Origin: Terriglobia bacterium
Lineage (GTDB): Bacteria > Acidobacteriota > Terriglobia > 20CM-2-55-15
Direction: 5' to 3'
Assembly (NCBI GenBank): GCA_965262675.1
Contig: OZ253554.1
Span: 570,997 to 634,996, forward strand
Length of the DNA stretch: 64,000 nt
Position 1 is the first letter of the stretch. Each line of letters starts with the position of its first letter. A program made the position numbers and the translations under genes. Positions 21,958 to 63,776 of the stretch are shown piece after piece. Below the pieces are notes generated by a model. That model searched no databases and was not told where the DNA came from. It was given only the letters and a program-made list of their open reading frames with translations.

Positions 21958-22003
21958 GAATCACGACAAAAGATCGTTCCGGATACGCAAGATTCACGAC
22001 CCA
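21958..22003 (+). repeat. 281-bp junction element, internal fragment (left part missing next to the mini-IS21)
   Basis: gaatcacgacaaaagatcgttccggatacgcaagattcacgaccca matches the middle of the copy at 52349-52558. Confidence 0.9.
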
Positions 22004-22226
22004 AGAACAGGGTGCCGTGGTCCAGGCATGGATTCAGGAAGTCGAGGAGAAGGGACTTGAGGACGGAGAATTTCTACGTGTTCGGGGTGCCGCCCTGGGT
22101 TATTTCAACCGCATCCGACCCGAACTTCAGATCCTGTTGTGGCAGAGGAATCCCCAGGGAACCATTCGTCTCCCGACAACGGTCAATCAAGCCCGCTTGA
22201 GGGCTGTGGCCCAGATATATTTCTGA
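22004..22226 (+). pseudogene. 3' fragment of an unidentified gene
   Basis: Open frame with protein-like sequence (QGAVVQAWIQEVEEKG...RAVAQIYF*) begins abruptly at the element fragment. Confidence 0.4.
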
Positions 22227-22336
22227 TCTCGATATCTTGGCGTGTACGGAAGCGTTACAAGGAAATAGGAGTCGGGCTCTCAAGCAGGATGGTGAAAAAG
22301 CCCTCAATGGCTTTTCTCAGCAGTGTTCCGTCCTGT

Positions 22337-22690
22337 TCATCCCACGTTCAAGAGGAGGTAAATGGCCACCCCGGACCCTATCGTAGCGCTCCCGTAAGTA
22401 AGAACAACAATTACTTCATTGAGGTGCTTAATCTGTGCTCCGTCGTAGAGTGTGTAGCGAAACCGGTGTGCCCAGTGAAACAGTGATAGTACGCATAGAA
22501 CGAGCAGGTAAATGCGGGTCACAGGCGATTGGAGTAAACCGAGCAGGCTTTCATGGCTGGGAGAGGCAATCCATCCCAGCGGGAACGCGAGCCCGAACAA
22601 AAACACGTGCACGGGTAACAGGAAAGCGGAGACGACGCCCCCAGCGCTGAACAAGGCCCAAAAGAAAGCTACATATGATCTTTTGGCCAT
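22337..22690 (-). CDS. frdD: Fumarate reductase membrane anchor subunit D
   Basis: Motifs FWALFSAGGVVSA and FHWAHRFRY; last gene of the operon. Confidence 0.9.
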   Translation of the reverse strand: MAKRSYVAFFWALFSAGGVVSAFLLPVHVFLFGLAFPLGWIASPSHESLLGLLQSPVTRIYLLVLCVLSLFHWAHRFRYTLYDGAQIKHLNEVIVVLTYGSATIGSGVAIYLLLNVG

Positions 22691-22691
22691 T

Positions 22692-23108
22692 CTAACCTCC
22701 CACGATAACCCAGGCTAAGAAACCCGATATCACCAGCCATGCGACGTAGTTTGGGGCGATGATCAGAATGTCGGGAACGCGCTTTCCGCCGAGTCGAACA
22801 ACGATGGCCCGTGGCGTAAGGTTGAACCAGGTGACGGTGTGTAAGAGTAGGAACAGAAATCCGACGCTATTCAGCAGGATGACGAGGGGATTACCTAAGA
22901 ATTCCTGCAGCTCGGCGTAACTGGTCGCCCCGATAGTTAGTGCCCGAACCTGCAGGAGCGTAATCACTATGAAATATCCGACGAATACGCTGCTCAGCTC
23001 CCTCAGCATGAACTTGGTGTAGGACCACTGAGAAAGCCACCAGTAGGTGGAAACGCGAGGGCGGTACCACTTTGGATGAAATTCCGTGTACGCGGACCGT
23101 TCCCTCAT
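22692..23108 (-). CDS. frdC: Fumarate reductase membrane anchor subunit C
   Basis: Motifs YWWL...[10 protein letters not shown] and [13 protein letters not shown]. The ATG at 23108 overlaps the frdB stop. Confidence 0.9.
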
Positions 23109-23848
23109 TTGGTTCCCCGCGGCATCAGGAAGGACTTGAACCATTCCGTCGTCGCAGTCACCTTGTACTGCTGAATCGCTCCCGCCGGATCTACGTGTTT
23201 GGGGCAGACCTTCGTGCACTCGCCTACAAAAGTACAAGCCCATATCCCTTCATGCTCCGACAGGATCCCGAGGCGTTCGGCGGCCCCCTGATCGCGTGCA
23301 TCCATGTTGTAGCGCTGAGCTAAGGCAATCGCCGCCGGGCCCGAAAAAGCGTCATCCAGGCCGTAAACGGGGCAGGCGGAGTAGCACAACATACAATTGA
23401 TGCACATACTGAACTGTTTGTATGAATCAAGTTCCTCAGGAGTCTGGAGATATTCTCCTTCCTCGATGGGCTTCTCATCTTCCCGGATGATCCAGGGCTT
23501 GACTTCCTTCAGTTTCGTCATGAAGTCCGACATTTCTATCGTTAGATCTCGGATGATCGGAAAATTCTTGAGCGGCTCGATTCGTACCGGACCGGGCGCA
23601 TACTCGGAGAGAAACGTGGCGCACGTGAGCTTGGGTTCGCCGTTCACCATCATCCCGCAACTCCCGCAGATCCCCATCCTGCAAGACCATCGGTACGACA
23701 GCGTCCCGTCCACCTCATCTTTGATGTAGTTCAAGGCATCGAGGATGACCCAGTCCTGGGTGATCGGCACCTCGTACTCTTGAACCGTCGGTTCTGTTTC
23801 CTGTTCCGGTCTATAGCGTGTGACTTCGAGGGCGATTGTGTCCGTCAT
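23105..23848 (-). CDS. frdB: Fumarate reductase/succinate dehydrogenase Fe-S subunit
   Basis: Motifs [21 protein letters not shown] and [13 protein letters not shown]. Confidence 0.95.
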
Positions 23849-23854
23849 CCGTAC

Positions 23855-25600
23855 CTACTTTCTTCCGTATACGCGTTCGGCCGGCGGCCATCGTGTGATG
23901 TTCACCGGCAGATACTCCATTCGAGAGGTGCCGTCTTCGTTTCGAAACACCAGAGAATGTGCGAGAAATTTTTCGTCGTCCCGGGCGGGAAAATCCGTCC
24001 TCTGATGCGCTCCACGGGACTCCGTGCGGTTGGCGGCACATTGCACGATCGTTTCGGCAACGTCGAGCATATAAGCCAACTCAAGTGCTGAAACCAGTTC
24101 CGTGTTAAACGTGCGACTGTGGTCCTGGATTGCGATGTCGTTGAAGCGATCCTGTAGTTCCCGAAGCTTCTCAGAAGCCCGTTTAATAGCTTCGCCGTTA
24201 CGGTAAATGCCCGCGCCATCCTCCATCGCTGCCTGCATCTCCTTCCGGATCGTAGCGATCGGTTCCCGCCCGCTTGTCTTTCGAAGAAACTTCTCTTCCA
24301 GGCGCCTCTTTTCATCGTTCGCTTGAGCGATAACGTGATTCCCAGGCGCCTTCCGAGTGGAGGCGAGAGCTGCGGCTGCCGATCCCGCTCGGCCGCCGAA
24401 AACGAGTAGTTCGGTCAGAGAATTCGAGCCGAGCCGGTTGGCACCGTTGATGCTGACACACGCGACCTCTCCCGCGGCGAACAATCCGTCCAGCGGAGTC
24501 GCGCCGTCTTTGTCGGTATGCACTCCACCCATCACGTAGTGAATGACAGGCCGCACGGGTATTTTTTCCCGAACCGGATCGATATTTTCGTACTTGAGAC
24601 ACAGTTCCCGGACAAAGGGAATTCTGGAGTCGATGTGCTTTTCTCCCAGATGGCGCAGATCGAGGTGTACGTAGTGGCCGTAAGGACCCTCCATAGTTCG
24701 TCCTCTCTCCTGTTCTTTGACGAACGCCTGGGAGAGCCGATCGCGAGGACCCAGTTCCATCGAGCGCAGCACGGGTTTGGCCTGTGGGGTCCCCAAATCG
24801 TAGTCCTGCAGGTACCGGTAGCCGTCCTTGTTTACCAGATGCCCGCCCTCGGCCCGGGTTGCCTCGGTGATCAGGATTCCGGTAAAGGGAAGACCCGTCG
24901 GATGGTACTGGACAAATTCCATGTCCTTTAAAGGGATACCGGCCCGGTAAGCCATCGCCATGCCGTCGCCGTTCTTGATGTTGGCGTTCGTGGTAAACGG
25001 AAACACTTTGCCGCACCCGCCCGTGCAGAGAATCACTGCTTTTGCAGTGATAGCCTGGATCTTCCCGGACATCAGCTCCAAGGCCACGACTCCCTGAACC
25101 TGGCCGTCGTCAACCAGCAACTTCGTGACGAACCACTCGTCGTAGCGGACGATGGGGTCATATTTTAACGACGTCTGGAAGAGCGTGTGGAGCATATGAA
25201 AACCCGTCTTGTCGGCGGCGAACCAGGTGCGCTTGTTTTTCATACCTCCAAACGGCCGCACGGCGACCCGGCCGTCGTCTGTCCGGCTCCAGGGGCAGCC
25301 CCAATGTTCCAGTTGCAGCAACTCTCTCGGGGCTTGCTCGACGAACAGTTCGACAGCGTCCTGATCACAGAGCCAATCGCTTCCTGAGACCGTGTCGTAA
25401 GCGTGTTCATCCAGGCTGTCGTCGTCGGCGATAACCCCGGCAGCTCCCCCTTCAGCTGACACTGTATGGCTCCGCATCGGGTAGACCTTCGAAACAACGG
25501 CAACTTTGAGCTTTGGATCGAACTCCGCAACGGCTATGGCCGCCCGCAGACCGGCGCCGCCGCCGCCAACCAAAAGAACATCGTAAGAAGAAACGTCCAC
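23855..25600 (-). CDS. frdA: Fumarate reductase flavoprotein subunit
   Basis: Motifs [37 protein letters not shown] and ESRGAH. GTG start after a GGAGG RBS. Confidence 0.95.
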
Positions 25601-25710
25601 TACCCCTCCGCGCCCTATGAAAGACCTCATAAAACGGCGTTTTCGATCAGTAAACCGTCGAGAATCTACACGTTGTTACGCCTGCTTGTCAAGAGATCGG
25701 CTGCAGAGGG

Positions 25711-27791
25711 CAGGGCCATTTTATTGTTCGTTCGGCGGTTTTCGGCAGCCCTGGTTGAATCCGGAGCTGGCTATTTTGTTTTCGATGTGGCAGAGTATCC
25801 GTCATGGGAGGGCCACCGGCACAGGGTTGCGATATTGATCTGCGGGCAGTGGCGGTGCGTCCGACCTGGGGCGCGGAGGAACACCGGCGCTGGGACAGGC
25901 TGGTGGCGGCCCATCACTACCTGCCGTTTCATGGCGTGTTCGGGAAGGGCTTGCGCCACGTCGCGACGCTGGGCTCGACCTGGCTTGCGCTGATCGGCTG
26001 GCAGCCGGGCGCGTTCAAGCTGGCCGCGCGCGACCGCTGGATCGGCTGGAGCGCGGAGCAGCAGTTCCAGCGCTTGCATCTGATCGCCAACAACGCGCGC
26101 TTCGTCATCCTGACGCCGCGCACGGTGCCCAATCTGGCCTCGCGGGCGCTGGGTCTGAGCCTGCGGCGGCTGTCGCAGGACATGCAGGCGGCGCACGGCT
26201 ACCCCGTCTTGCTGGCAGAGACGTTCGTGGATCCGGCCCGCTTTGCCGGGACCTGTTACCGCGCGTCGAACTGGCGCTGGCTGGGCCGGACCCGCGGCTA
26301 TGCCCGGGAGCCCGGCGGCGCGGCGCGCTGGCGCCATCACGGCCAACCCAAGGAGATCTTCGTGTTCGAACTCACCGGCCATGCCGCCGAGGCGCTGAGC
26401 CAGACCGAGACGCCGGCCTCGTGGCACGGTGAACCCCGAACCGCGCCCATGGCCGCGCCGCGTCTGCGCAGCCTGTTCGAGCGCCTGGGCGAAGTGCCCG
26501 AGCGGCGCCGCGCCCGGGGCAAGCGCTACCCGCTCCACACCGTGCTGACGCTCGCCGTCGCGGCCCGCCTGGCCGGCTACCGCGGGGTGACCGCCTTTGC
26601 GCAGTTCGCCCGCCTGCTCAGCCAGGAGCAACTCCAGGCCGTGGGCGCCTTCTACAGCCCCTCGAAGCAGCGCTACACCGCGCCCTCGATCACCACCTTC
26701 CACAACATCCTCGCGGCGCTTCCGCCCGAGACCCTCGACAACGCCATCGGCCGGTGGGCCGGCCAGTACAGCGCCGCTCACGCCCCGGTGGCCATGGACG
26801 GGAAGGACCTGCGCGGCGCCTCGGCGCAGACCGGGCACGGGCGCCGGATGATGGTCGCGGCGGTCGAGCACGGCTCCGGCCTGGTCCTGGGTCAGAAAGA
26901 GATCGACGACAAGACCAATGAAATCCCCGCCGTGCGCGACCTGTCGGGCGGCCTCGACCTCGCCGGACGCACCGTCACCCTCGACGCGATGCATGCCCAA
27001 CAGGACACCGCCCGCTGCCTGCTCGACCAGTGTCACGCCGACTACGTCGTCACCGCGATCAAGGACAACCAGCCCACGATGCATGACGACCTCCGGTCGG
27101 TCGACTGGAGCGCCGCGCCCTCGCACGAAACCCTCGAGAAGGCCCATGGCCGCATCGAGCGCCGCCGTTGCGCCGCCATCGACCTCTCCGACACCCCCTG
27201 GGACGGTTACGCCAACCTCTATGGACGCCGCCAGGCGATGCGCATCGAACGGGAGCGCGAGACCGTCAAGACCGGCGCGTGCAGCGTCGAGGTGACCTTT
27301 TGCCTGACCTCGCTGGATGCGGAGCGCGCCAGTCCCGAGCAACTCCTGGCCCTGGTCCGGAATCACTGGCACATCGAAAACCGTCTGCACTACGTCCGCG
27401 ACTTCACCTACGATGAAGACCGTTGCCGGGCCTATGTGCGCCACTTGCCGCGCAATCTCGCCTGCCTCACCAACGCCGCCATCGCCATCGTGCGCTGCCA
27501 GGGGCGCTTCCGCTACCTGCCCGAGGCCAACCGTCATTATGCCGCCCGCGCGCAGGATGCCCTCGACGCCATCCTGAATGCCCCCACAGCCTGACCCCCC
27601 CCGACATCCCTGCGGAATCGGGCGCGACGCGCCGCTGGACACCTGTGCCCGCCGGGCACGAAGACGCCATGCGACGCCTGCAAGCGGCCCCCTTTACGCG
27701 TCTCCCGCAACCCCGCGACGCGCCGATCCCCTTCCAACCTACGCGATCTTCCTCATCCCGCGTCCCGAGGCGGGACAATAAAATGGTCCTG
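25711..27791 (+). mobile_element. ISAs1-family IS, complete, with 10-bp target duplication
   Basis: Inverted repeats CAGGGCCATTTTATTGT and ACAATAAAATGGTCCTG. Direct repeat CTGCAGAGGG at 25701-25710 and 27792-27801. Confidence 0.93.
25804..27594 (+). CDS. ISAs1-family DDE transposase with N-terminal DUF4338-like domain
   Basis: N-terminal HHYL...ARDRWIGW...NNARF...ETFVD...GTCYRASNW; C-terminal AMDGKDLRG, KTNEIP, TLDAMHAQ, HGRIERR and HWHIENRLHYVRD. Confidence 0.92.
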   Translation: MGGPPAQGCDIDLRAVAVRPTWGAEEHRRWDRLVAAHHYLPFHGVFGKGLRHVATLGSTWLALIGWQPGAFKLAARDRWIGWSAEQQFQRLHLIANNARFVILTPRTVPNLASRALGLSLRRLSQDMQAAHGYPVLLAETFVDPARFAGTCYRASNWRWLGRTRGYAREPGGAARWRHHGQPKEIFVFELTGHAAEALSQTETPASWHGEPRTAPMAAPRLRSLFERLGEVPERRRARGKRYPLHTVLTLAVAARLAGYRGVTAFAQFARLLSQEQLQAVGAFYSPSKQRYTAPSITTFHNILAALPPETLDNAIGRWAGQYSAAHAPVAMDGKDLRGASAQTGHGRRMMVAAVEHGSGLVLGQKEIDDKTNEIPAVRDLSGGLDLAGRTVTLDAMHAQQDTARCLLDQCHADYVVTAIKDNQPTMHDDLRSVDWSAAPSHETLEKAHGRIERRRCAAIDLSDTPWDGYANLYGRRQAMRIERERETVKTGACSVEVTFCLTSLDAERASPEQLLALVRNHWHIENRLHYVRDFTYDEDRCRAYVRHLPRNLACLTNAAIAIVRCQGRFRYLPEANRHYAARAQDALDAILNAPTA

Positions 27792-27899
27792 CTGCAGAGG
27801 GGCGCACGTCAGGAAGGTGAGACAGGTTCGGGTGACCAGTAACGGCAACGGTTGCGACGGGCTATTCCTACGGATATAGTGTCCGTAGGAGGTATGCCG

Positions 27900-28228
27900 A
27901 TGAACCGAGAGGCGATCCCAGCAACTGTTCGTAACGTGGCGCGAGAATTGGCCGAGCCCCGGCCGATGCGACGGGGTTCGGTGTCGGAACGGTCGATGAA
28001 GTGTGGCCGGAAAGAATGCCGGTGTCAGCAAGATCCCGAGGCGCGGCATGGGCCGTACTACAGTCTGACGCGGGCGGAGGGAGGAAAGACGCGGTCCCGG
28101 TACGTGAATGCAGAGCAGGCTTCAGCGGCGCGCCGGCAAGTGGAGGCCGGACAGGAATTCCGGAAGCGGGTCGAGGCCTACTGGCGGGCCTGCGAACAGT
28201 GGGCCGACGCCCAACTGGAAGCGGTGGG
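27900..28228 (+). pseudogene. DUF6788-like IS accessory ORF, truncated by IS3
   Basis: MRRGSVSER..KCGRKECRC...HGPYY; the frame runs into the IS3 end at 28229. Confidence 0.7.
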
Positions 28229-28408
28229 TGAGGGGCTCCCCATTCTTCGGACAGAAAATCCCGGTTCTTAAGGTGGATCGCTGCCGTTGAAATGGGTTGA
28301 TATTTGGCCCGTCGCCGAGCCTGTGGCAACTGTGAAAAAGCCGAGTCTCCGAGGCTGTTTTCAAGCAGCTGTGGGAATCCGCGTCGTGTGCGGATTTCCA
28401 CAGCTGCG

Positions 28409-29284
28409 TCAGTTTCCACAGGCCCCTGGCGGGCGTTGAAAGTAAACGGCCTCGGGTGTCCGATAGTCGAATGCTTCGTGGCCGCGTTCCCGATTGTAAT
28501 GCCTGAAATACAGATTCAGGTTCGAGATCGCCTCGGGAACGCTCAAGTAGTCCTTCAGGTACACTTCCTCGTACTTCACGGTTCGCCATAAGCGCTCGAC
28601 GACGATGTTGTCCAGGAACCGGCCCCGGCCGTCCATGCCGATCGTGATGCCGCGGTCTTCGAGCCGGCGCGTGAAGACATCGCTGGTGAACTGCGCGCCC
28701 TGATCCGAGTTGAAAATCTCGGGTCGCGCCTGGGTCAGCGCCCAGTCCAGTGCCGACACGCAAAACCCGCTGTCCATCGTCGTGGACACTTCCCAGGCCA
28801 GCACGTACCGGCTGAACCAGTCCATGATCGCCACCAGATAGATGAATCCTTGCCGAAGCCGGATATAGGTGATATCCGTGGCCCAAACCTGATCGGGACG
28901 CACAATCTCCAGATGGCGCAACCGGTACGGGTAAATCCGGTGTCCCGGGGCCGGCATCGACAACCGCGGTTTGGGATAGATCGCTTCCAGTCCCATTCGC
29001 CGGACCAGTCGCCGAACCCGCTTCGCATTGACCGGCCGGCCTTGCGTCTTCAACCACCAGGTCATACGCCGAATCCCGTAATACGGGGTGCGCGTATACT
29101 GCTCGTCCAACAGACGCATCAGCGCGATGTTCTCGGCGCTCTCGCCCACCGGTGTGTAGTAGAGTCCCGATCGGGACACTCCGCTCAACCGGCACTGCTC
29201 CAAGATGCTCAACTCGTCGTGATTGGATTCGATCCATGGCCGTCGTTGCTCTAACGGGAAAGTCCCGACTTTTTTTTGAGCCAC
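28409..29284 (-). CDS. IS3 transposase OrfB (integrase core), -1 frameshift fusion with OrfA
   Basis: Motifs WATDITYI, NSDQGAQFTS and DNIVVERLWRTVKYE. Slippery A8G at about 29269-29277. Confidence 0.93.
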   Translation of the reverse strand: MAQKKVGTFPLEQRRPWIESNHDELSILEQCRLSGVSRSGLYYTPVGESAENIALMRLLDEQYTRTPYYGIRRMTWWLKTQGRPVNAKRVRRLVRRMGLEAIYPKPRLSMPAPGHRIYPYRLRHLEIVRPDQVWATDITYIRLRQGFIYLVAIMDWFSRYVLAWEVSTTMDSGFCVSALDWALTQARPEIFNSDQGAQFTSDVFTRRLEDRGITIGMDGRGRFLDNIVVERLWRTVKYEEVYLKDYLSVPEAISNLNLYFRHYNRERGHEAFDYRTPEAVYFQRPPGACGN

Positions 29285-29544
29285 TCCACCTCGACCTGTA
29301 ATCGTCCGATCTGTTGGTAGAGTTCGGCCTGCGCTTGCTCATCGGCTTCACTGGCCTGTGCCCGGCCATTGGAGAAGATCTCCGATACGCCGTCGAGCAC
29401 TTGCTTTTTCCACTTCGTCACCATGTTCGGGTGAACTTCGTAGTGGGACGCGATCTCCTGGATCGTGCGCTGCCCCTTGACCGCTTCCACGGCGATCTTT
29501 GCCTTCAAATCCGCGCTGTACTGCTTCCGCCCTCGCTTCTTCAT
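29251..29544 (-). CDS. IS3 transposase OrfA (HTH)
   Basis: RKQYSADLKAKIA...HPNMVTKWKK...LYQQIGRLQVEVEWLKKK. Confidence 0.92.
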   Translation of the reverse strand: MKKRGRKQYSADLKAKIAVEAVKGQRTIQEIASHYEVHPNMVTKWKKQVLDGVSEIFSNGRAQASEADEQAQAELYQQIGRLQVEVEWLKKKSGLSR

Positions 29545-29608
29545 CGGCCTCTCCCGAGGCAGCGATTTTACACCTTAGCCACCTGTCCGAATTTTGGGGA
29601 TCCCCTCA

Positions 29609-31080
29609 CCAACCGGAACAAGCGCTGTTGCTGCCGCCGAATGTGCGGGATTGGTTGCCGGAGGGTCACCTGGCGGACCATGTGAGCGATCTGGTGGACG
29701 GTCTGGATTTAGCGGTGTTCTACGAGCGTTACGAGGGGGACGGTCGCCGGAAGTCGCCCTATGAGCCGCGGATGATGTTGAAGCTGCTGATCTACGGTTA
29801 TGCGACGGGGGTGTTTTCGTCCCGGGGGATGGCGCGGAAGCTGGATGAGGACGTGGCGTTCCGGGTGTTGGCGGCGGACAACTATCCGAGCCATCGGACG
29901 ATATGCGAGTTTCGCCGCCGTCATTTGTCGGCGTTCAAGCGATTGTTCGTGGAGGTGGTCGGCTTGGCGCGGGAGATGGGCGTGGGGAACTTCGGCAAGT
30001 TATCGATCGACGGGACGAAGGTTCGAGCCAACGCCAGCAAGCGCAAGGCGATGAGTTACGGTCGGATGCGGGAGGAGGAGCGGCGTCTGGCGGGCGAGAT
30101 CGAAGCGTTGCTGTCGCGGGCGCGGGAGACCGACGAGGCGGAGGATGCGCGCTTTGGGGAGGCGTTTCGGGGGGGCGAGTTGCCCGAGGAGTTGCGCCGG
30201 CGGGAGGACCGGCTGGCGGCGATCCGGGCGGCCCGGGCGCGTTTGGAGGCCAGGCAACGGGAGGCGGACGAGGCGCGGGGACGGGAGCCCGGTTCGAAGC
30301 GCAACCCGAAGGGCGGGCGGCCCTACAAGCGGGAATACGGGGAGCCGGACGAGAAGGCGCAGGACAACTTCACGGATCCGGAAAGCCGGATCATGAAGAC
30401 CTCGACGGAGGGATTTCAGCAGTGCTACAACGCGCAGGTGGCGGTGGAGGGAGAGAACCAGTTGATCGTCGCTACCGAGGTGTCGTCGAACGCCAACGAC
30501 CAGGGCCGGATGGTCCCGCTGGTGGACGAGGTGGAGGCCACCCATGGGGACGGCCCGAGACGGTGTTGGCGGATGCGGGCTACTGCAACGAGGACGACCT
30601 GCAGGTGCTGGAGGCGCGCGGCGTGGACGGCTATGTGGCTCTGGGCCGGGAGGGCAAACACGAGATCCGGGTGAATGCGGCCAAACATCCGGCGAAGGCG
30701 CGCATGGCCGAGAAGCTGGCGACGGAGGCGGGACGGGCGCAGTACGCCCAACGCAAATGGCTATCGGAGGCGCCCAACGGGTGGATCAAGGAGGTGCTCG
30801 GTTTCCGCCGATTCAGCCTGCGCGGCCTGAGCAAGGTCCAGGGCGAGTGGAACCTGGTGTGTCTGGCATTGAACGTCAAGCGGATGCAGGGGCTTCAGGT
30901 AGCCCAATGACCGGGATACCGCCCGCAAATCAGGCCGTCAGAGGGTCGATTCAGGCGCCCGTGGCGCACCCAGCGGCGCCTCGTCGTCCAAAACGCCCTT
31001 TCCCCGGCCACCGATGCCGATCAATCGCTATCTCGCGAAATTCGCCAACCCGCAAATCGTCCTACGGCGCAGGCTCCTAG
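29609..31080 (+). pseudogene. IS1182-family transposase remnant (5'-truncated, frameshift at about 30550)
   Basis: LLPPNVRDWLPEGHLA, YGYATGVFSSR, IDGTKVRANAS and NFTDPESRIM, continuing in another frame as LADAGY...GFRRFSLRG. Right end GGCGCAGGCTCCTAG. Confidence 0.88.
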
Positions 31081-31199: not shown

Positions 31200-31210
31200 A
31201 GTTGTGGATC

Positions 31211-55184: not shown

Positions 55185-55703
55185 ATGCGAAATAACATCT
55201 GGACCTTGTGTCTATTGGTGACCGCTATGTGTGGTCAGGCAATGGGGCAGTCTGCACCTGACGTGATCCGCCGGGCTGCGGAGGCGCTCGGAGGCGAAGA
55301 CCGGATCCTCTCGCTCCGGACGCTCAAGATCGAAGGCTATGGTCAGGCTGCCGCGCAGAACGGGGGCGCCAATGCCTCCGCTTCGGTGGATTCGCCGCAG
55401 GTGTGGACCAACATTCAGGGCTACGAAAAGACGATCGATCTGGCCAACAACCGTGTGCGTGTCCGCCAGCGCAGCCAGGCCTTCACCTCTGCCGCGACGC
55501 TCAGTCGGGGTCTGGGAAACATTGTCACGACCCAGGTACTGGATGGAGACATCGCGTACACGGTTAATGAAGACGGAGAGGCACGGCGCGGCGGAAATGC
55601 CCCCAACCTGCGCATCGAAATGCTCACCCATCCGGTCGCTCTCATCCGCAGGGCGCTCGACGCTACGACCGTCGTCAACAACCTGCGCAAGATTGAACCG
55701 TGA
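55185..55703 (+). pseudogene. N-terminal fragment homologous to the 36165-37709 MBL-fold family
   Basis: RAAEALGGEDRILSLRTLKIEGYGQ...MLTHPVALIRRALD parallels RAAEAMGGHDRL...TGFGQ...MLDHPLPAVLEALD; the catalytic domain is missing. Confidence 0.7.
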
Positions 55704-56290
55704 CTCCGCCGACGACCCGTGGGAAGGGATATCGAGTTGAATGGCGGGATTTCAGGGCATGCTTCGAAACACCGCCGCCTGTCGACCGACGTTCGATGTA
55801 TAGGATGTGTGAGAAAGCATTCGGTCTGGGCGTTCATGTCGCTGGCGAGTTGTCGCCCAGCAGGTGCCTCGTAGTGATGCGCAGCGAGAGTGAAGACGAT
55901 ACGTCTAAACCATGGCTCGAAGCCATGCGAAAGGCAGCGACTCAGTTGTCGGGCAATCGGCCGGGGTTCATTGTTGTGCAGTTCCAGGATGTGGCTACGG
56001 AGGATCTGTTGCTGCGTCATCTACGCCGCAGAGCGGGCATCCTCTCGTATGCGCTGTATGGACACTACGGGGCGGATCATGTCAACGCAACACAGGTCTG
56101 CGGGAACGGCACCGTTGTGCCGGGTACGGAGGACGCCGGAACACCGGCGTTCTCGGTACCGAATCCGAAACCGAGGTTCCCGCTCAATCCGTCGCTTGCG
56201 TTGCCGTTCTTGGGGGGGTCAGCGACGCGGAATTCGCCGACGCGCTAGGAGTTCCGCGTCCGGGCGTAGACATTTCGACCATCCCTCACT
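55700..56290 (+). pseudogene. C-terminal fragment of a hypothetical protein
   Basis: Protein-like frame (AMRKAATQLSGNRPGFIVVQF) without a clear start; probably frameshifted near the end. Confidence 0.4.
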
Positions 56291-56461
56291 GACAGGTGGA
56301 GCGAGTTCTCGGGTCCTGTAAGAAATCTTGTGTGTTGAGCCGTTCTTCATCGTCCAAACCGTCAGCACAAAGCGGTCTCCGAACTGGATCGCGAACTGTG
56401 CCTTGGCAGCATGCCAGTACCATGACCTCCCCCCACGACAACACGCGAAAGGAATTTAGCA

Positions 56462-57571
56462 ATGCCCACTAGGCGTCCAGTGATTGCTCGTCTAAGAAGT
56501 CTCGCTTCCCCTGCAGTCAAATCTGATGGGACGCTTGCCATGGCCGAAACAATGCTCGACGCTCTTGACAGCACGGCGAATGGAAAAAGGATCGCCTGCA
56601 CGATCAATCGGCACTGCCGCACTCGGATCTTTGACTTCCCGCGAGCCCGCATCACCGAGTCAGTGCCTCACGTCCCCGTCTACCAATCCGACTCGCTCCA
56701 CGCTAGCTTAGTCTGCGACTTGGACGCCTTCTTCGAACAATCATTTAGCCCGCACTACGCCCTAAGTCCACCTCTACGCCACGAAGTCGCCGAAAAGCGC
56801 AAAGAATTGGATTCCCAAGGAAACGGCATCTACGCAATTCTTGTAGTCGAGGAACTGGACAAGCTGTTGCCTTTGGTTCTCGATCGAGGGTGCTCATCGC
56901 TCGACGAGGTCGGCGATCTAAACGGCCAACGCACTCCGCTCCTGAAGGGAGGTCGCGAAAACCAGAAATTCATCGTCGCGTACGAGACCAGCGACGGCCC
57001 GTGGCCGGATATACCCCGCAACGAACAGAAGGTGAACATGATTCTCGCCATTACCCGCGCATTTCAAGACAGCGACCAGGAGATTCGCAAACATGTTGAT
57101 CAGATGTGCCTGATTACCGACGACGATCGATATGTATGTCCCATGTCCGCGGGATTCGTCTCCGCGCGTGCAGATGTCGTAAGGAATTTGGATGCCGACG
57201 AGTTTCGTGTGACAGCCGCACGACTCCGCGCAGCCGCCGCCCTCATGGATGCCGACCTGCGATCGGAGCACATCGAGTTGCTTGTCAACGCACTCTACTG
57301 GGACGACTACAAGGACGATGATTTTAGGCGCCTGCACTATTTGAATCTCTGGGAATCGCTCTGCGAGTCCAGAAAGAAACTAGGATATGCGGCACCCAAA
57401 GGTAAACCGATTGACGACCACACCATTCTTGCGGGATCCCTAAGCATCTCAGACCTCACAAGGTATCGCCACGACATCGCTCATTTTTGGACCGGGTCCA
57501 TCGATGGGAACTATTTGGCTGGAATGTACCGGACCATCAACGAACTGATCCGACGAAAGTACTTCCCATGA
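56462..57571 (+). CDS. Hypothetical protein with C-terminal HEPN-like motif
   Basis: LHYLNLWESL helix followed by R-x4-H (YRHDIAH). Confidence 0.6.
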   Translation: MPTRRPVIARLRSLASPAVKSDGTLAMAETMLDALDSTANGKRIACTINRHCRTRIFDFPRARITESVPHVPVYQSDSLHASLVCDLDAFFEQSFSPHYALSPPLRHEVAEKRKELDSQGNGIYAILVVEELDKLLPLVLDRGCSSLDEVGDLNGQRTPLLKGGRENQKFIVAYETSDGPWPDIPRNEQKVNMILAITRAFQDSDQEIRKHVDQMCLITDDDRYVCPMSAGFVSARADVVRNLDADEFRVTAARLRAAAALMDADLRSEHIELLVNALYWDDYKDDDFRRLHYLNLWESLCESRKKLGYAAPKGKPIDDHTILAGSLSISDLTRYRHDIAHFWTGSIDGNYLAGMYRTINELIRRKYFP

Positions 57572-58438
57572 CCCACTTTCGCCACCTCGCGCAATCCAGA
57601 CCAAGCCGACCCGCCGAGCGCCAAAATCCAGCTAAGCGTACGTTTCCCGACTCGCGCGTCATTGCAGTCCAGACCTCCCACTCCTAGAGTTCGGCTCATT
57701 GGTGGCAATCACCTCCTCCCTCTCCGCCACTACCTCTTTGTAAGTGTTTATTTATAAGTGTATTTTTACAATATACGTATAACTTTTCCCACGTTATTTC
57801 TCACGGTCAACCAGAGTCCAAGCGAGACCAAAGGCGACGGTTGGATACGATCTCACGGGCGCGCTGAATCTCGCACCAACCCTCGTTTCCACAGACGCGA
57901 CGATAGCTGCGGACCGCTCCACCGTCTCAAAACTCGGTGACTCCGGGAAACCCGGTACGGTTCGGCACGGGCACCGCGCGCAGGTGCGGGGCATCCTGCG
58001 CTCGCTCAAGCGGCTGCGCGGACTTCCGCGTTCGGACGGCACTCCCGGAGCCGGGGTTCGCCCCGAACCCGGTCCATTTCGTCGATATTCGTTCGCAGGT
58101 CACGGCGCACTTGCCGAAATTCTCAATCAATTTGAGCGCGATTCATGGAACAGCATCGGAGTAGACATCCGGTCTGAGCACAAGCCACTGACGATAACTT
58201 GATGACCCAGACGACTTCTCCGTGGATAGTCACGCTTCACAGACCACTCATACGCAGCAGTCGAAGCGGTCCCCCATTTTTTGGACAGTTCTGTAAGGTC
58301 AATTCTGCTCTGACCGGGAGAGGCGAGGACCATGACCGATCACGCACCAGCCGGCTGTTCGCCATCCCGGCCTGTCATCGCGGAATCGGAATCGACTCGA
58401 ACCCTGAACAGCGATTGCGCAAGAGGTAAACAGCAAGG

Positions 58439-58834
58439 ATGTCTGAATTAACTTTGGAAAAGGTTATGGCTCGTCTCGACAACGGTTGTAATCCTGTGGA
58501 ATTGGCGGGTCATGGTCGCGAGTCAACCCACAAGGGATATCTGACCTGGCTCTTGAACACGTCGCACTGGCCAGCTGCGAACCACGCGCTTATTTGTCTC
58601 GTCGAAGCTGCCGTTCCCCATTGGCCTGACCGGCATAGAGTCAGCGCACATCGCTGGACTCAACGCTGTCCTGATAACCTGTATACCCTTTACGAACAAC
58701 GGGTCGGCAACGGCAAAGTCGACCTGATCGTGAGAGCTGGCGACGGCAACGATAGAGACCTTCTTCCCATCGAGTTGAAGACAGACAGCGCGGTCGGTAG
58801 TGATCAACTGACCAGGATGTCAGTCGAAGGTGCG
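58439..58834 (+). pseudogene. PD-(D/E)xK nuclease N-terminal fragment, cut by the element
   Basis: RESTHKGYLTWLL...VDLIV...PIELKTDS...DQL, then ADK* running into the element. Confidence 0.72.
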
Positions 58835-59039
58835 GATAAGTAAAATAAGCGGGCTTCGCAGTAGCTTCGCAGTACAGGGACTGGCAAGACGCACGACCGG
58901 AATGTCGCCGTTGCGGTGTTATGTTGAGCCGGAGGGAGCCAGGACGGGAGAATCGCGACAAAAGATCGTTCCGGATACGCGAGATTCACGACCCAGGCAC
59001 ACGAATCCGGCTTCGGCCTTTTGCCGTCTTCAGAGCCAG
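58832..59039 (+). repeat. 281-bp junction element, right-truncated copy with 11-bp duplication (208 bp)
   Basis: Runs from GCGGATAAG to CTTCAGAGCCAG. Confidence 0.96.
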
Positions 59040-59818
59040 GAAACCGAATCCATTCCTGATGCCGATGCTTTGGCATGCAACTGCCGATCACCGAGCCGTC
59101 CAGGGTATTGAGCGCGGCGAACAGCGTGGTGGTTCCGTGGCGCTTGTAATCGTGGGTCATCGTGCCGCACCGCCCCTTCTTCAGAGGTAATCCGGGTTGA
59201 GTGCGGTCCAGGGCTTGCATCTGGCTCTTTTCGTCGCAGGACAGGACCAGGGCGTTCTCCGGCGAGTTCAGATACAACCCGACCACATCCTCGAGCTTTT
59301 CGGCGAATCGGGGGTCGTTGGACAGTTTGAAGGTGCGCCCCAGATGCGGCTTCAGACCATGGGCCCGCCAAATTCGCCCGACCGTGGACTCGCTGACCCC
59401 GGTGGCCTTCGCCATCGAACTCCGGCTCCAGTGCGTGGCGTTGGGCGGCTTCTCTTCAAGCGTCCTCTTCACAATCCGGGCCTGTTTCCGGCGGCTGATC
59501 GACGGCAGCCGTCCACTTCGGGGCGCGTCCTTTGCGATCCCTCCGATGCCCTGTTCCAGGAACCGATTGCGCCATCGTCCGGCTTTCTGACGCGTGATGT
59601 TCAGTCGGGCTCCAATATCCTGATTATTCAACCCATCGGCAGCCAGCAAGACGATCCGGGACCGCTCCGCCAGCCGGACCGATGTGCTCCGGCTTCGGCT
59701 CAAACCTTCCAGTTCTTTCCGCACTGCGATATCCAGTTCGATGACCCGTGCTTTTCTCATGTCTACTTAGACGTTGGAAAGATCAATAAGTTACATTACC
59801 TATGACGGACTACATTAG
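59040..59818 (-). mobile_element. IS630-family element, 3'-truncated at the junction element
   Basis: ATG at 59760; [36 protein letters not shown] and [16 protein letters not shown]; cut after HQEWIRF, before the second catalytic Asp. Confidence 0.9.
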
Positions 59819-60020
59819 AGAGGATGTTCGGTTGGTTCCTTCGGCCCGGCACAAAAAGGGCGATCGGGCGGCAGCCGCCCCCGCGCCGACACGTCCGCGA
59901 CGGCGCTGCCCGAGAGGTCGAACCCGGCAGCGTCCCGAACCCGATCGACACGCTCTCGCCGCCTCGGCGAGCGTGTCCCCGGTCGCGGCCGCCTGTCCGC
60001 GGTACGCGTTCTCCGGGCAA

Positions 60021-62966
60021 TCAGGGCACCTCGACCACCGGGACGACGGGCAGTGTGGTGAAGATCCGGTCGACCCCATCGAGTTCGAAGGCCACCGCCG
60101 AGAAGCGTCCCGGTTCGGACGTCAGGCACCGCACCGACCCCACGAAGTCCGACGTATCGGCGGTGGGGAAGATCTCGTCGATGAACCGGGAGTCCTGGCC
60201 GTTGGCGGCAAGCGGGATCATCGTTTCGTCGAGCACGATGCCGTCCCGCATCAGCCGGCACCGCACCAGAAGGGCGGTCGTGTCCCGGTTGTGGATGGCG
60301 ACGCCCGTGTTGATGCCGCCCTCCTGGCGGCGCACCGGGACCAGGGCATCCCGGACCGGGGGACTGTCGCCGACCCCGGCGACTCCGAGGGCGGGGATGT
60401 CGAAGCGCAGGACCCCGCCAATGGGACCGTCGGCCGTCACCGCGACCGATCCGACCACCTGCCCCCCGCGGCCGTGGGTCGAGATCGTCAGTTCTCCCAA
60501 CGGGTTCATCGCCGTGACAGGGCGCAGGGCGCCGTCGTCACCCACTTCAAGATCCTCGGTGATATCCACCAGCGACTCGGCGGCGATGGGATCGCCTTGT
60601 TGATCGTAGAAGTAAATGGCGGGACGGACCGGATTGGCGCCCGCGTTCACCAGCACCAGTGAGGAGACGATCTTCCCGCCATTGGCGAAATGCGTGAAGT
60701 CCAGCCGTGTGGCGTCCTGTTCCTGTTCCTGCCCCTGTTCCTCCTCTTGCTCCTGATCCTGTTCTTCCTCTTGTTCCTGCTCCCGATCCGGGACCGCCGG
60801 TACCGGCACCACCGGCAGGGTGGTGAAGATCCGGTGGACGCCATCCAGTTCGAAGGCCACCGCCGAGAAGCGCCCCGGTTCGGGCGTCATGCACCGCACC
60901 GACCCGGCGAAGTCCGAGGTGTCGGCGGCGGGGAACACTTGGTCGATGAATCGGGAGTCTTGGCCGTTGACCGCAAGCCGGATATCCGCCTCTTCGAGCA
61001 CGGCGCCGTCCCGCATCAATCGGCATTGCAGGGTCAGAGTGGCCGTTCCCCGGTTGCGGACCGCCACGCCCGTGTTGATGCCGCCATCTAGGCGGCGCAC
61101 CGGGAGCAGGGCATCCGGAACCGTCGGGCTGTCGCCGACCCCGGCGACCCCAAGGTTGGGGATGTCGAAGCGCAGCACCCCGCCGATGGAACTGGGCGCC
61201 CGGACCGAGACCGATCCGACCCGCTGTCCCCCGCGGCCGTGGGTGGCAATGGTGAGTTCGCTCAGGGGGTTCATGACTGCCCGGGGGCTCAGGGCGCCGT
61301 CGTCCAGGACCTCCAGATCCGGGGTCAGGCTCACCAGGGACCGGGCGGCGATGGGATCGCCGTCCTGATCGTAGAAGTAGATGGCGGGGCGGGCCGGGTA
61401 GGCGCCCGCGTTCACCAGCGCCAGCGTGGAGGTGATGAACCCCCCATTGGCGAAGTGGGTAAAGTCCAGGTCGGCCACGGGCGTGGCCTCGGGCGAAATG
61501 CGGTGGGAACCGGCGCCGGCCGCGCTCACCGCGCGCAGATGGAAGAAATAGACGCGGCCGTTGATCAGACCGGCAATGGTGTGGGCGCGATCGGTCGATC
61601 CGGTCGAAATCCACTCGCCCTCGCCGTCGATCCGGTACTCGTAATGCTGAATCCGAGAACTGCCCTGGCTGGACGGCGCATTCCATCGTAGCGTCACCTC
61701 CCCATCGCCGCCCTCCGCCCGCATGGTCCCGGGATAGCTGGGCGGGCGCGTGATGACCGTGGGTGTCGCCACCGCCGCCGTCGCCGCACTGGTCAGCATC
61801 TCCGGGTTGCCGAGATCGTCGGTGAAGCGCACCCGCACCCTGATCCTCTTCCCCTCGTCGTCGCCGGTCAGGGTGTAGGTCGCTGCGGTCGCACCAGGGA
61901 TGTCCATCGGGTTCGACAGGCCGTCCGCATCCACCCGCACCCACTGGTAGGAGAAGGTCGCCGGCAGCCCGTCGGCGTCGGAGATGCCCGTGGTCGAAGC
62001 CGTCAGCACCTGCCCGACCCCCGCCGTGCCGGTAATCGTGGGCGCCCCCGTCGCCGGGGTGTTCGCCCGCGTGCTGAATGCCGTCGCCCCCATGACCCAC
62101 TCGCTGGATCCGCGCGCATTGGTGACACTGACCCGTACGTCGTACGCCGTATTCGCCTGAAGACCCCCGATGGCCGCGCGCGTCACCGGCGTTTCGCCCG
62201 CGTACCAGTTGCTCCACTCGGTGGTGCCCTGCACCCGGTAGTGCAAGTAGTTGCGAACGAGCGGCGAGCCGCCGTCACCCGGGTGCGTCCACTCGATGGT
62301 GAGCGTCTTGGTGGTGGCCGACACCAGGGTCGGCCGCGTGGGATCCGGCGGTTTGGTGGGGGTGGGGGAAACCGTCAACAGCAACCCGCCGGATCTCGGC
62401 CGGCCGTTATTTACGATTGCTCCGAAGGAAATGGTCGTACCGATCGGCGTATCCGCTGTGACGGTCAATGTCGCCGTTATTGTCGTGTTGTTAAAGATCT
62501 CGGTGTAGATCGTGTGATGGCCCTGAATGTTGTTCCATATGCCCGGACCCCTCGACGGCGAAAAACTGGCGCAAAAGTATTTCCCCGCGCCGCACGACAT
62601 CGGGTTCGAACCCAGATTGGAATGCGCGACGGAAGTGGACGTAGACGGGACATGGAAACCGGCATACTCATTTCCCGGCTGAGGCCCCGCGGTGCGGGTG
62701 ATCGTGTAGGTGTACGTACCGCCCGGAACTGGCGACGTCTCGCCGTGCAGGGACCATGTTGCGCCTTCAGCGAATTGCGAGATCGTCGTCTCGGCAGCAT
62801 GGAGCAAACTTGCAAAGCCGAGCGCCAGGGCGGCCAACGCCCCGGCTGCCGCCCGCGCGCCGCGCGGCAGGGTCGCGGCGGTCCGTGGCGGCGGCGCGAC
62901 GTCCGCCCGGCAGGTCCGCGGGTCCTTGCTCCCGGCGATGGCGCCGGACTCCGACAAACGATCCAT
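60021..62966 (-). CDS. Large secreted/surface protein with fibronectin type III domains and a duplicated C-terminal domain
   Basis: Signal-like segment, two FN3 domains, a PATGAPTITGTA repeat, and two roughly 225-aa repeats (LDFTHFANG...IFTTLPVVPV) joined by an EQ-rich linker. Confidence 0.85.
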   Translation of the reverse strand: MDRLSESGAIAGSKDPRTCRADVAPPPRTAATLPRGARAAAGALAALALGFASLLHAAETTISQFAEGATWSLHGETSPVPGGTYTYTITRTAGPQPGNEYAGFHVPSTSTSVAHSNLGSNPMSCGAGKYFCASFSPSRGPGIWNNIQGHHTIYTEIFNNTTITATLTVTADTPIGTTISFGAIVNNGRPRSGGLLLTVSPTPTKPPDPTRPTLVSATTKTLTIEWTHPGDGGSPLVRNYLHYRVQGTTEWSNWYAGETPVTRAAIGGLQANTAYDVRVSVTNARGSSEWVMGATAFSTRANTPATGAPTITGTAGVGQVLTASTTGISDADGLPATFSYQWVRVDADGLSNPMDIPGATAATYTLTGDDEGKRIRVRVRFTDDLGNPEMLTSAATAAVATPTVITRPPSYPGTMRAEGGDGEVTLRWNAPSSQGSSRIQHYEYRIDGEGEWISTGSTDRAHTIAGLINGRVYFFHLRAVSAAGAGSHRISPEATPVADLDFTHFANGGFITSTLALVNAGAYPARPAIYFYDQDGDPIAARSLVSLTPDLEVLDDGALSPRAVMNPLSELTIATHGRGGQRVGSVSVRAPSSIGGVLRFDIPNLGVAGVGDSPTVPDALLPVRRLDGGINTGVAVRNRGTATLTLQCRLMRDGAVLEEADIRLAVNGQDSRFIDQVFPAADTSDFAGSVRCMTPEPGRFSAVAFELDGVHRIFTTLPVVPVPAVPDREQEQEEEQDQEQEEEQGQEQEQDATRLDFTHFANGGKIVSSLVLVNAGANPVRPAIYFYDQQGDPIAAESLVDITEDLEVGDDGALRPVTAMNPLGELTISTHGRGGQVVGSVAVTADGPIGGVLRFDIPALGVAGVGDSPPVRDALVPVRRQEGGINTGVAIHNRDTTALLVRCRLMRDGIVLDETMIPLAANGQDSRFIDEIFPTADTSDFVGSVRCLTSEPGRFSAVAFELDGVDRIFTTLPVVPVVEVP

Positions 62967-63271
62967 TTCGGTTTTCCCTTTCCCTGTCTTCCCTGCATGC
63001 TCCGGGACGCTCCGCACGGTCCCGGTCGCGGAGGCCCCCGCACTGCCTGCCCGGCTTCCCGGGAGGCCCACATACAATTCCCCCAATAATTCTAGACAAC
63101 ATTGTGTGATAATAGTGTCCTTTTTTTGGTGTTTTTGGCGAATATTAAGCGAATTCAATGTGAAATCACGGAAACGGATCGAATCACCCCCGTCCGAGGC
63201 GGTGGGTAGAGGGAGGAGGGATGACTGATCAAGACCGGATGGAGGCCGACAACGCGGCGCTGCGCGCCCGC

Positions 63272-63498
63272 TGTTGTTTTGCACCCAAAACTGATCCACT
63301 TAAATCGGGTATTTGCATCGAAAGTTGACCCACGTGTAAACCCATTCCTGCCGATTAACCGAGCAGGAGGGCAAAGGAGTGATAGACGTGGCGATATTGA
63401 GTGTGATCAGACGCTGGCATGTACGAGAGGGCATATCGATTCGAGAGATCAGCAGGCGGACGAAGCTGTCGCGCAATACGATCCGCAAACACTTGGCG
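63272..63498 (+). mobile_element. IS21-family left end and istA 5' fragment, cut by the element
   Basis: TGTTGTTTTGCACCCAAAACTGATCCAC...AAAGTTGACCCAC end repeats; VIDVAILSVIRRWHVREGISIREISRRTKLSRNTIRKHLA. Confidence 0.85.
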
Positions 63499-63776
63499 GA
63501 TAAGTAAAATAAGCGGGCTTCGCAGTACAGGGACTGGCAAGACGCACGACCGGAATGTCGCCGTTGCGGTGTTATGTTGAGCCGGAGGGAGCCAGGACGG
63601 GAGAATCACGACAAACGATCATTCCGGATACGCGAGATTCACGACCCAGGCACACGAATCCGGCTTCGGCCTTTTGCCGTCTTCAGAGCCAGTCCGTTTC
63701 AGTGGGTTGCACAGCCGGGTTAACGGGTGGTGCACGCGAAGGCAGGCCGAGGCAGTCCAGGATTTTCTGGGTAGCG
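63496..63776 (+). repeat. 281-bp junction element, full-length reference copy
   Basis: GCGGATAAGTAAAATAAGCGGG...GGATTTTCTGGGTAGCG, with no indels relative to the other copies. Confidence 0.97.

Follow-up and report, generated by a model that had tools for sequence, protein, structure and literature searches.

For the insertion sequence (IS) IS91, rolling-circle replication has been shown experimentally to run into the element. In IS91, IS801 and IS1294, one element end, oriIS, lies downstream of the transposase gene (tnpA) and the other, terIS, upstream, and no target duplication is made; the ISCR elements of the same broad family have a single catalytic tyrosine in place of the IS91 pair. 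CTTG next to oriIS is the IS91 target, terIS is missed in 1-14% of IS91/IS1294 events, and read-through capture of adjacent DNA by IS91-type elements is experimentally documented (PMC13181058). Here we examine a 64,000-nucleotide stretch of a Terriglobia genome (the window) in which a short repeated unit, always in one orientation, separates unrelated gene fragments. Its sequence identifies this unit as the oriIS-side end of an ISCR-like element, a new and distant member of the IS91 family, and we regard that identity as settled. The window covers positions 570997-634996 of a genome (G000) represented by one single 5.54-Mb contig; positions below are window positions unless marked genome.

The initial annotation of the window had proposed an undescribed DNA-capture array built on a 281-bp non-coding unit. 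Repeat search, BLASTN of 63496-63776 against the whole genome and an 18-mer scan (3 mismatches or fewer) recovered all ten copies that it listed, at or within a few bases of their given places. All are on the + strand as read, nine share their start base (including the degenerate 22-nt stub at 48647), and BLASTN finds none before the array in window 1-21957. No target duplication or conserved flank is seen at the copies, and genes are cut at the junctions (Ldh_2, TonB-type barrel, IS630-type and IS21-type istA fragments). As the annotation had held, the site-cargo-site layout with one base-exact boundary is not that of simple insertions of miniature inverted-repeat transposable elements (MITEs), and the locus does look as if unrelated DNA had been captured or joined there repeatedly. 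Its novelty is another matter. The unit proves to match an element end from a catalogued IS family, an outcome named beforehand as speaking against the proposal, and the term "undescribed" is unsupported because the ISCR group is already known as common regions (PMC6218425). The data support a capture array apparently made by a known rolling-circle element.

The repeated unit and its relatives

We number the element from its left (oriIS) end as position 1; the transposase is encoded on the minus strand, and the copies run + as read. Followed rightwards, copies share more than 281 nt, up to 375, 427, 792 and 1,817 nt, the last being the length of the full element. Because the copy that begins at 63496 is full-length and extends to 65492, 63776 is no true end of a 281-bp unit; position 281/282 is instead a recurrent truncation point (50707, 52349, 67001). 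Nor is the unit entirely non-coding, as had been supposed: positions 1-188 form a non-coding element end downstream of the gene, while the right-hand part, positions 189-281 (93 nt), holds the final 30 codons and the stop of an HUH transposase gene on the minus strand. The frame stops within the unit (...DATQKILDCLGLPSRAPPVNPAVQPTETDWL-stop), and longer copies read back through RYSGILAPAAKWR, YRFKHPWRDGTTHVVF and LHLHML. The 188-nt end downstream of the gene is the oriIS side as predicted from its place in the family.

Within the transposase, a Y2_Tnp domain (PF04986; E 1.4e-24, 87.5 bits against a Pfam cutoff of 20.9) is preceded by an N-terminal Zn_Tnp_IS91 domain (PF14319; E 5.4e-16, 58.8 bits against 26.3). 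Together with the LHLHML motif, these are the features of the HUH/Tyr transposases of the broad IS91 family, ISCR included; the sequence also reads ...LARYCARPP.... The ends agree with that assignment, being unlike each other (GCGGATAAG... at the oriIS side, ...GATCCCTT at the other), with no terminal inverted repeats at the element ends and no target-site duplication, and the constant end 188 nt past the stop codon, kept in all stubs, has the character expected of an oriIS. The best NCBIfam model is that of the ISCR element clade Ia family transposase (NF052416; E 3.1e-99), but the score of 332.8 bits is far below the curated cutoff of 925 bits for this "exception" model, so that by this rule the protein is no clade Ia member and represents a distant relative or new lineage. 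By tblastn against plasmids it is ~40% identical, over 94-95% of its length, to annotated ISCR1, ISVsa3 family and IS91 family transposases.

Comparison with the ISCR elements (ISCR1, ISCR2/ISVsa3 and ISCR8, the "common regions" of resistance loci) reveals several likenesses: an HUH transposase of the same clade, with ~40% identity to those of ISCR1/ISVsa3, a non-coding oriIS region, ~190-230 nt long, downstream of the gene, and no clear target tetranucleotide. The oriIS region of ISCR1 is 232 bp (PMC6218425), and the oriIS of a sphingomonad IS91 lies 167 bp past the coding sequence (PMC5737581). An exact oriIS boundary adjoining variable, often truncated genes is likewise reported for ISCR elements (PMC6218425), and intact and partial copies can share one locus (PMC7722449, PMC6506621). 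Unlike those cases, the host here is an environmental acidobacterium, no resistance gene was identified among the open reading frames (ORFs) scanned, and there are 18 ends in ~80 kb as against a handful in the published cases examined. With IS91, IS801 and IS1294 the element shares its Pfam domains, the placement of oriIS downstream and terIS upstream of tnpA, the lack of target duplication, and one copy next to CTTG. It differs from them in that CTTG/GTTC, required by canonical members, is absent from 16/17 G000 and 18/18 G001 flanks (G001 is a sister-species genome introduced below), and in that it scores only 71.2 bits against the 125-bit cutoff of the NCBIfam IS91 equivalog (NF033538).

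An Rfam scan of 63300-64000 returned only mir-2318 at E 0.12, which is no accepted match, and the ends fold like shuffled sequences; structured RNA was accordingly rejected as an identity for the unit. No sigma-70-like site that could form an outward promoter like ISCR1 POUT was found in 63300-63900, though that consensus may be ill-suited to Acidobacteria. Over 13 copies, variability per 20 nt gave no sign of special conservation at element positions 1-40.

A one-orientation array in two species

The array comprises 18 element ends and one internal piece, extending from window position 21958 to ~102438 (genome 673434); rather than closing at 63776, as first drawn, it runs on 38 kb past the window. 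In the following list, strand is that of the transposase gene.

21958 to 22009, minus strand: internal element piece, positions 108-159, without an oriIS end, adjoining the end of an unrelated ~1.7-kb repeat (BLASTN, flank comparison).
32822 to 32949, minus strand: oriIS-end stub, positions 1-128, with position 1 at 32822 and its breakpoint just 5' of CCGGA.
41829 to 41877, minus strand: oriIS-end stub, positions 1-47/49, with an internal fragment of Ldh_2 as left flank.
44257 to 44359, minus strand: oriIS-end stub, positions 1-103.
48647 to 48668, minus strand: degenerate 22-nt oriIS-end stub with 2 mismatches in its first 18 nt (18-mer scan).
50707 to 51022, minus strand: oriIS-end stub, positions 1-282, with an internal 34-nt duplication and the last 30 transposase codons; breakpoint 5' of CCGGA.
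52349 to 52558, minus strand: oriIS-end stub, positions 1-163 joined to 237-281, with an 11-nt duplication; ends at 281.
54890 to 55023, minus strand: oriIS-end stub, positions 1-123, with the same 11-nt duplication as 52349; left flank a NucS-type nuclease gene.
58832 to 59039, minus strand: oriIS-end stub, positions 1-197, with the same 11-nt duplication; right flank an IS630-type helix-turn-helix (HTH) transposase gene without its DDE part.
63496 to 65492 (beyond the window), minus strand: full-length element (1,817 bp plus a MITE), its oriIS end adjoining ...CACTTG of an IS21-type istA.
63845 to 64021: MITE-like repeat of ~177 nt inserted in the transposase gene of that full copy.
Starting at 67001, beyond the window: oriIS end cut at 281.
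Starting at 68637, beyond the window: oriIS end cut at 42.
Starting at 71743, beyond the window: oriIS end cut at 111, with a changed second base.
Starting at 77644, beyond the window: oriIS end cut at 375.
Starting at 79711, beyond the window: oriIS end cut at 53.
Starting at 83935, beyond the window: oriIS end cut at 427.
Starting at 87719, beyond the window: oriIS end cut at 54.
Starting at 94125, beyond the window: oriIS end cut at 792.
Starting at 100622, beyond the window: full-length copy.

Every one of the 18 ends starts at element position 1 (at 71743 with an altered second base), and the 18-mer scan places 18/18 island ends on '+' and 0 on '-'. They fall within 1.5% of the 5.54-Mb genome, and this one-orientation pattern is far beyond chance. 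The single orientation claimed at the outset thus holds for every island end, though not for a diverged fragment (76% identical; BLASTN) that lies in '-' orientation at 100346-100437. The ends are concentrated in the island, but a few copies of the unit sit elsewhere in the genome (2275018 '-', 2281734 '-' and 5172269 '+'). The internal deletion of the 52349 stub lies between short repeats, an ORF begins 12 nt after the 41829 stub, and the transposase ORF of the 63496 copy is disrupted near its 3' end by the MITE. Further copies of this MITE-like ~177-nt repeat occur at 5166-5250 and 19074-19284, and many dozens, 70-99% identical, genome-wide.

Two of the outlying copies form a second mini-array (genome 2275018-2275145 and 2281734-2281841, both '-'), 6.7 kb apart and both cut at position 128; they share 482 bp of stub and right flank at 98% identity, and the stub at genome 2281734 has lost its first 20 nt to insertion of a DruA-type IS. 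Ends of a diverged paralogous IS91-family element with the common start GCGGA.AAG..AAATAAGCGGGG are found at genome 4567298 and 4572202 (both '+') and 2195099, and a transposase fragment of that element, 54% identical, at genome 4572438-4573214. Relative to replication (cumulative GC skew minimum ~3.76 Mb, maximum ~0) there is no consistent orientation bias, because the 2.275-Mb copies are oriented opposite to the array.

The unit is present in 14 of the 41 genomes searched, G000 counted among them. Comparison of the tRNA-Ser locus across genomes, as the initial annotation had advised, showed that the comparison genome G001, a Terriglobia metagenome-assembled genome (MAG) of a sister species in the same genus, carries a matching array at the same chromosomal locus. 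This array has 18 ends over ~75 kb, 18/18 of them '+' and 18/18 starting at position 1, with cut points at 100, 128, 111/116, 47-49, 54, 684, 282, 18, 456, 51, 22-24, 512, full, 111, 102, 312, 159 and 78; its full copy retains an intact 527-codon transposase ORF. Whereas the core flanks of the two genomes are 94-97% identical, shared modules are 96-99.4% identical and differ in order, some being inverted. On this evidence from the alignments, the island is one that has moved or recombined between species after their divergence and that rearranges quickly. Small same-orientation clusters of diverged copies also occur in another genus (G016, 2 within 5 kb; G022, 3 within 13 kb), and a full-element search of G016, G022, G007, G017 and G006 found solo 1-x fragments and small same-orientation clusters, mixed with paralogues that align by their coding parts alone.

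Retention of the oriIS end and recurrent breakpoints

Among the ~36 fragments of the G000 and G001 arrays, terIS-only fragments number 0, and there are two internal pieces in all, one per array (positions 108-159 in G000, 22-126 in G001). After collapsing orthologous junctions, we were left with ~31 independent stub/cargo and ~29 independent cargo/oriIS junctions from two islands and one element. Truncation endpoints are strongly skewed to the first ~130 nt of the element, and several recur with different flanks (111 three times; 22, 54, 128 and 281 twice each). Under a null model in which each endpoint is jittered by +-25 nt, 7 identical-endpoint pairs were observed among the 31 junctions against 1.27 expected (p~0.001).

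Inspection of the endpoints further revealed a relationship to the motif CCGGA: 6/31 junctions lie exactly 5' of it (0.49 expected, p<=5e-5), 9/31 lie within 1 nt of that site (1.42 expected, p<=5e-5), and the incoming flank starts with GA in 10/31 (p 5e-5), all p-values being nominal since these patterns were found after inspecting the data. Four of the six CCGGA sites in the element are used as breakpoints. In the intact element the base after the breakpoint is C in 18/31 and position +4 is G in 23/31, and the incoming flank starts with G in 18/31. The element start GCGGA resembles CCGGA, and the context of position 128, AAAAGATCGTT/CCGGATACG (the slash marking the break), resembles the joined element ends AAAACGATCCCTT/GCGGATAAG. 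We infer that at CCGGA the transposase may have terminated too early, or exchanged strands, because these sites look like its nick site. On the other side of the stubs, neither a left-flank consensus nor a target duplication was found at 17 G000 and 18 G001 copies; a T occupies position -3 in 9/29 (p 0.09).

Support for the junctions

Many stub junctions are identical in two independent assemblies. The 32822 stub and its right flank also occur in G001 at 666153, both junctions of the 41829 stub are common to G001 678491, and the 50707 stub shares its left junction with G001 684559 and its right junction with G001 690683. We also aligned sequencing-run contigs (Logan; runs X1, X7 and X11 from three studies) on window 44001-64000. 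Those of X7 show zero differences from G000, whereas X1 and X11 contigs carry single-nucleotide polymorphisms and therefore come from other strains. The stub/cargo junction 44359/44360 is crossed by contigs of all three runs (short side 33-40 nt), the 48647 stub by an X7 contig spanning 48463-50747, and junctions 50706/50707 (41 nt) and 51022/51023 (48 nt) by contigs as well; other junctions are reached with just 29-30 nt, the k-mer limit. In X1 and X11 an element end follows immediately on position 46549, at the site of an IS4-like insertion in G000, a case of strain-level variation. The sponge-metagenome runs X2-X6 contributed small shares only, X2 contigs being short and diverged. With junctions repeated in two assemblies and several crossed by contigs of three studies, chimeric assembly is very unlikely as a cause.

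How the array may have formed

Differences between G000 and G001 expose several kinds of event. The G001 istA, of IS21 type, is uninterrupted across ...CACTTG/GTGAACGG, and in G000 the oriIS end of the full element comes after ...CACTTG; to judge from this comparison, the full copy next to CTTG is a true transposition. It was no simple cut-in, because the rest of istA is nowhere in the G000 genome: either a longer one-ended unit would have entered, or DNA was lost. Recombination is visible where G001 reads cargo A, stub (1-100), 743 bp, stub (1-128), cargo B and G000 reads cargo A, stub (1-128), cargo B. The G000 stub in question, at 32822, is chimeric and bears the position-12 variant of the first G001 stub, which indicates a crossover inside the stub, that is, homologous recombination between stubs. 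A rightward deletion in situ is apparent where G000 has a stub, 2.3 kb, a second stub and 113 bp, and G001 has an 18-nt stub joined through 4-nt microhomology; only this stub remains at the G001 left junction equivalent to that of 52349. In four pairs the same left junction is followed by different truncations and right cargo (128/100, 282/54, 281/111 and 375/512). Ordinary events also separate the two islands. Among them are the insertion, inside a terminator hairpin, of a 2.5-kb IS with a 5-6-nt duplication (G001 673350-675868) and that of a 121-nt MITE (G001 680359-680479), which has terminal inverted repeats and lies at CTAG.

We consider it likely, from the arrangement of the copies, that the array arose by aberrant rolling-circle transposition with entry beside resident copies, followed by recombination and deletion. 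The transposase would nick a fixed boundary 5' of GCGGATAAG, and rolling-circle replication would run into the element. Unreliable termination would let replication overshoot into neighboring DNA, as one-ended transposition, and the product would close at some arbitrary point z, giving cargo/oriIS junctions that interrupt genes and show neither target duplication nor a flank consensus; an early stop, preferentially 5' of nick look-alikes (CCGGA at 54, 128, 282 and 427), would give stubs that always keep the oriIS end. Circles or units would enter beside resident copies, and homologous recombination between same-orientation stubs, together with microhomology deletions, would then delete, reshuffle and shorten modules. 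The expected outcome is a mosaic in which stubs of one orientation separate foreign fragments of 1-11 kb. A precedent is the Helitron Helraiser, whose damaged terminator yields truncations and read-throughs that keep the initiation end (PMC4778049).

Several observations weigh against this scheme. According to PMC6218425, no ISCR transposition had been demonstrated experimentally as of 2018. DNA folds of both strands of both element ends are no better than shuffles (z 0.76 to -0.03), so that the subterminal palindromes of IS91, IS801 and IS1294 went undetected, although short imperfect hairpins are possible. Next to oriIS, CTTG or GTTC is found at 1/17 G000 flanks (the 63496 full copy) and 0/18 in G001. 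G000 has no intact transposase gene, one copy being broken by the MITE and one frameshifted. BLASTN of the island against the genome found no duplication of a cargo module within G000, several block boundaries have no stub (e.g. 41520-41571, and the boundary of Y0/Y1 with E), and an 806-bp insertion in G001 contains a stub midway. Both sequence patterns at the breakpoints, CCGGA and GA, are post hoc. Lastly, an in-situ deletion of host type is clearly behind some truncation, as the 18-nt G001 stub attests. The weakest link is the origin of individual truncations, which may be transposase-made or host deletions; both occur.

Were the array the product of ordinary decay, many full IS copies in a dispensable island would have been eroded by random host deletions and other IS insertions, with no polarity due to the transposase. 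Much about the island would suit such a history, since other IS elements and gene fragments abound in it, one truncation came about by microhomology deletion, other differences between G000 and G001 are ordinary IS and MITE insertions with target duplications, and G000 lacks an intact transposase gene. Random deletion, however, should yield terIS- and oriIS-side remnants alike, and we count 34 truncated oriIS-side stubs (not all independent) against 0 terIS-only. Moreover, copies with unlike flanks break off at identical endpoints, breakpoints concentrate 5' of CCGGA, and the left boundary is base-exact in all copies. Simple adjacent deletion alone cannot account for the strict polarity, and we hold decay of this kind to be improbable. 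About equally doubtful is a rolling-circle "integron" whose stubs are working sites, the HUH transposase excising DNA between same-orientation nick sites as a single-stranded circle that is re-inserted at another stub. This model would accommodate the base-exact boundary, the single orientation, the modules shuffled between G000 and G001, the keeping of stubs as short as 42-54 nt, the breakpoints at nick-site look-alikes and an inverted G001 cargo block that ends at the same base as a G000 cargo/oriIS junction. Yet at least one module loss has its crossover inside a stub, which fits homologous recombination and not nick-site exchange, several differences are unbounded by nick sites, the terminal 20-40 nt are conserved no better than the rest, and no module is duplicated. 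A slightly wider proposal, that stubs are live substrates for a transposase acting in trans and stub-bounded DNA a cassette re-inserted at stubs or at GCGGA/CCGGA look-alikes, strikes us as unlikely too, the chimeric stub and the stub-free boundaries appearing to argue against such exchange. If true, gene fragments would be shuffled by a rolling-circle, HUH-driven counterpart of the integron, and bacteria would have a parallel to the exon shuffling of Helitrons.

Much less probable is that an island tyrosine integrase recombines sites overlapping the IS end, in the manner of the GIsul2 integrase and its CR2-sul2 unit. An integrase gene does directly adjoin the last full copy, and GIsul2 supplies a precedent (PMC9376610); the GIsul2 attachment site, however, overlaps terIS, not oriIS. 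The integrase gene here is split into two frames, and the apparent core, the tRNA-Ser 3' end CACCCTCTCCGTT, has no likeness to the element end, on which ground we reject integrase-driven recombination. Hardly credible at all is an assembly chimera or a plain MITE family. These genomes may be metagenome-derived, as G001 is, and repeats invite misassembly; still, the junctions recur in two independent assemblies and are crossed by contigs from three studies, two of them from other strains, and the unit belongs to a 1.8-kb IS with no terminal inverted repeats, target duplications or rejoinable flanks. As a class, MITEs were rejected because the stubs have one element end only, no duplication, and flanks from different genes.

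The tRNA-Ser island and its cargo

The array fills a ~83-kb genomic island between tRNA-Ser and a 13-bp repeat of the tRNA-Ser 3' end. The gene that marks its left limit is as follows.

20789 to 20877, plus strand: tRNA-Ser (CGA), whose 3' end is the left attachment site of the island (ARAGORN).

Synteny between G000 and G001 stops at this gene. The 13-nt repeat lies at 104089-104101, beyond the window, and just inside it is the tyrosine integrase gene in two frames (Arm-DNA-bind_3 with Phage_int_M, and Phage_integrase). Apart from other multi-copy IS elements, the cargo between stubs has no second copy in the G000 genome by BLASTN; the idea that it was copied from the host chromosome was rejected, the island matching the genome only through IS elements, the MITE and distant paralogues. 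Gene fragments and other IS elements are abundant. An Ldh_2 fragment at 41571-41840 covers profile positions 76-161 (of 333), the N-terminal part is missing from a TonB-type barrel and the DDE part from an IS630-type HTH protein at 58804-59760, and a 55-residue HTH stub of IS21-type istA ends at 63495. Apparently whole are Amidohydro_2 (profile 12-289 of 289), a NucS-type nuclease gene and an frd-like cluster.

Other features of the region were also recorded. A ParE-type toxin and HTH antitoxin pair (window 66011-66675, genome 637007-637671) lies directly past the terIS end of the full copy, and the same pair also comes after the full copy in G001. Just left of the 22-nt stub is a tRNA-like gene with a 4-base anticodon (caaa; 48530-48615, minus strand, ARAGORN), which has 18 nt in common with tRNA-Ser and may be a relic attachment site. 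An IS at 25708-27792 encodes a 596-aa protein with a DruA-like N-terminal region (Pfam DruA 1.6e-22) and DDE_Tnp_1_assoc/DDE_Tnp_1; this DruA-type IS has ~13-14 near-identical copies genome-wide. A 1,092-aa ORF at 60021-63299 (minus strand) has fibronectin type III domains, a 765-nt internal repeat and many paralogues elsewhere in the genome, and its block is inverted relative to the stubs in G001. Local GC skew is +0.012 to +0.018 inside the island (19000-35000 and flanks) and negative in the flanking 100 kb, in line with a foreign origin of the island. Outside the array are six tandem copies of a 108-nt period at 859-1698 and a short G+C-rich repeat array at 1845-2070, with an inverted partner 17 kb off at 19184-19248.

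Comparison with other arrays and implications

Other systems share parts of this architecture. Integron cassette arrays and pdif modules have a similar one-orientation site-cargo-site layout; here, unlike there, the site is an IS end in which no attC-like fold was found, and gene fragments make up most of the cargo. With no significant fold, no Rfam match and, as the sole integrase found, one of tRNA-island type (no dedicated or genome-wide IntI/Xer search was made), the locus does not classify as an integron. IS26 arrays, with their translocatable units, are likewise same-orientation IS copies with unrelated fragments between, built by entry beside a resident copy, but they consist of whole IS copies with inverted repeats, moved by a DDE transposase with a chemistry different from that of the present element. 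Eukaryotic Helitrons are also HUH rolling-circle elements that join unrelated gene fragments, and their truncations and read-throughs keep the initiation end (PMC4778049). They differ in their Rep-helicase protein, end sequences and AT targets, so that the likeness is mechanistic, not familial. The array stands out by its size (18 ends per ~80 kb, seen in two species), by its occurrence in an environmental host, and by its strictly polar fragments and breakpoint hot spots. In the open-access papers searched, we found no description of strict polarity, CCGGA hot spots or a comparable array, and prior description is possible.

ISCR elements are held responsible for assembling many multi-resistance regions, and the present islands offer a junction set from one element, far from clinical selection, that combines retention of the oriIS end, recurrent look-alike breakpoints and one clean CTTG insertion. 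Such a set leads to testable predictions for transposase cut sites and termination failure. For annotation, it suggests that when short "non-coding repeats" in one orientation are met at gene breakpoints, the first comparison should be with the 3' ends of IS91/ISCR genes. For bacterial chromosomes, it indicates that gene-fragment mosaics like those of Helitrons can arise there as well.

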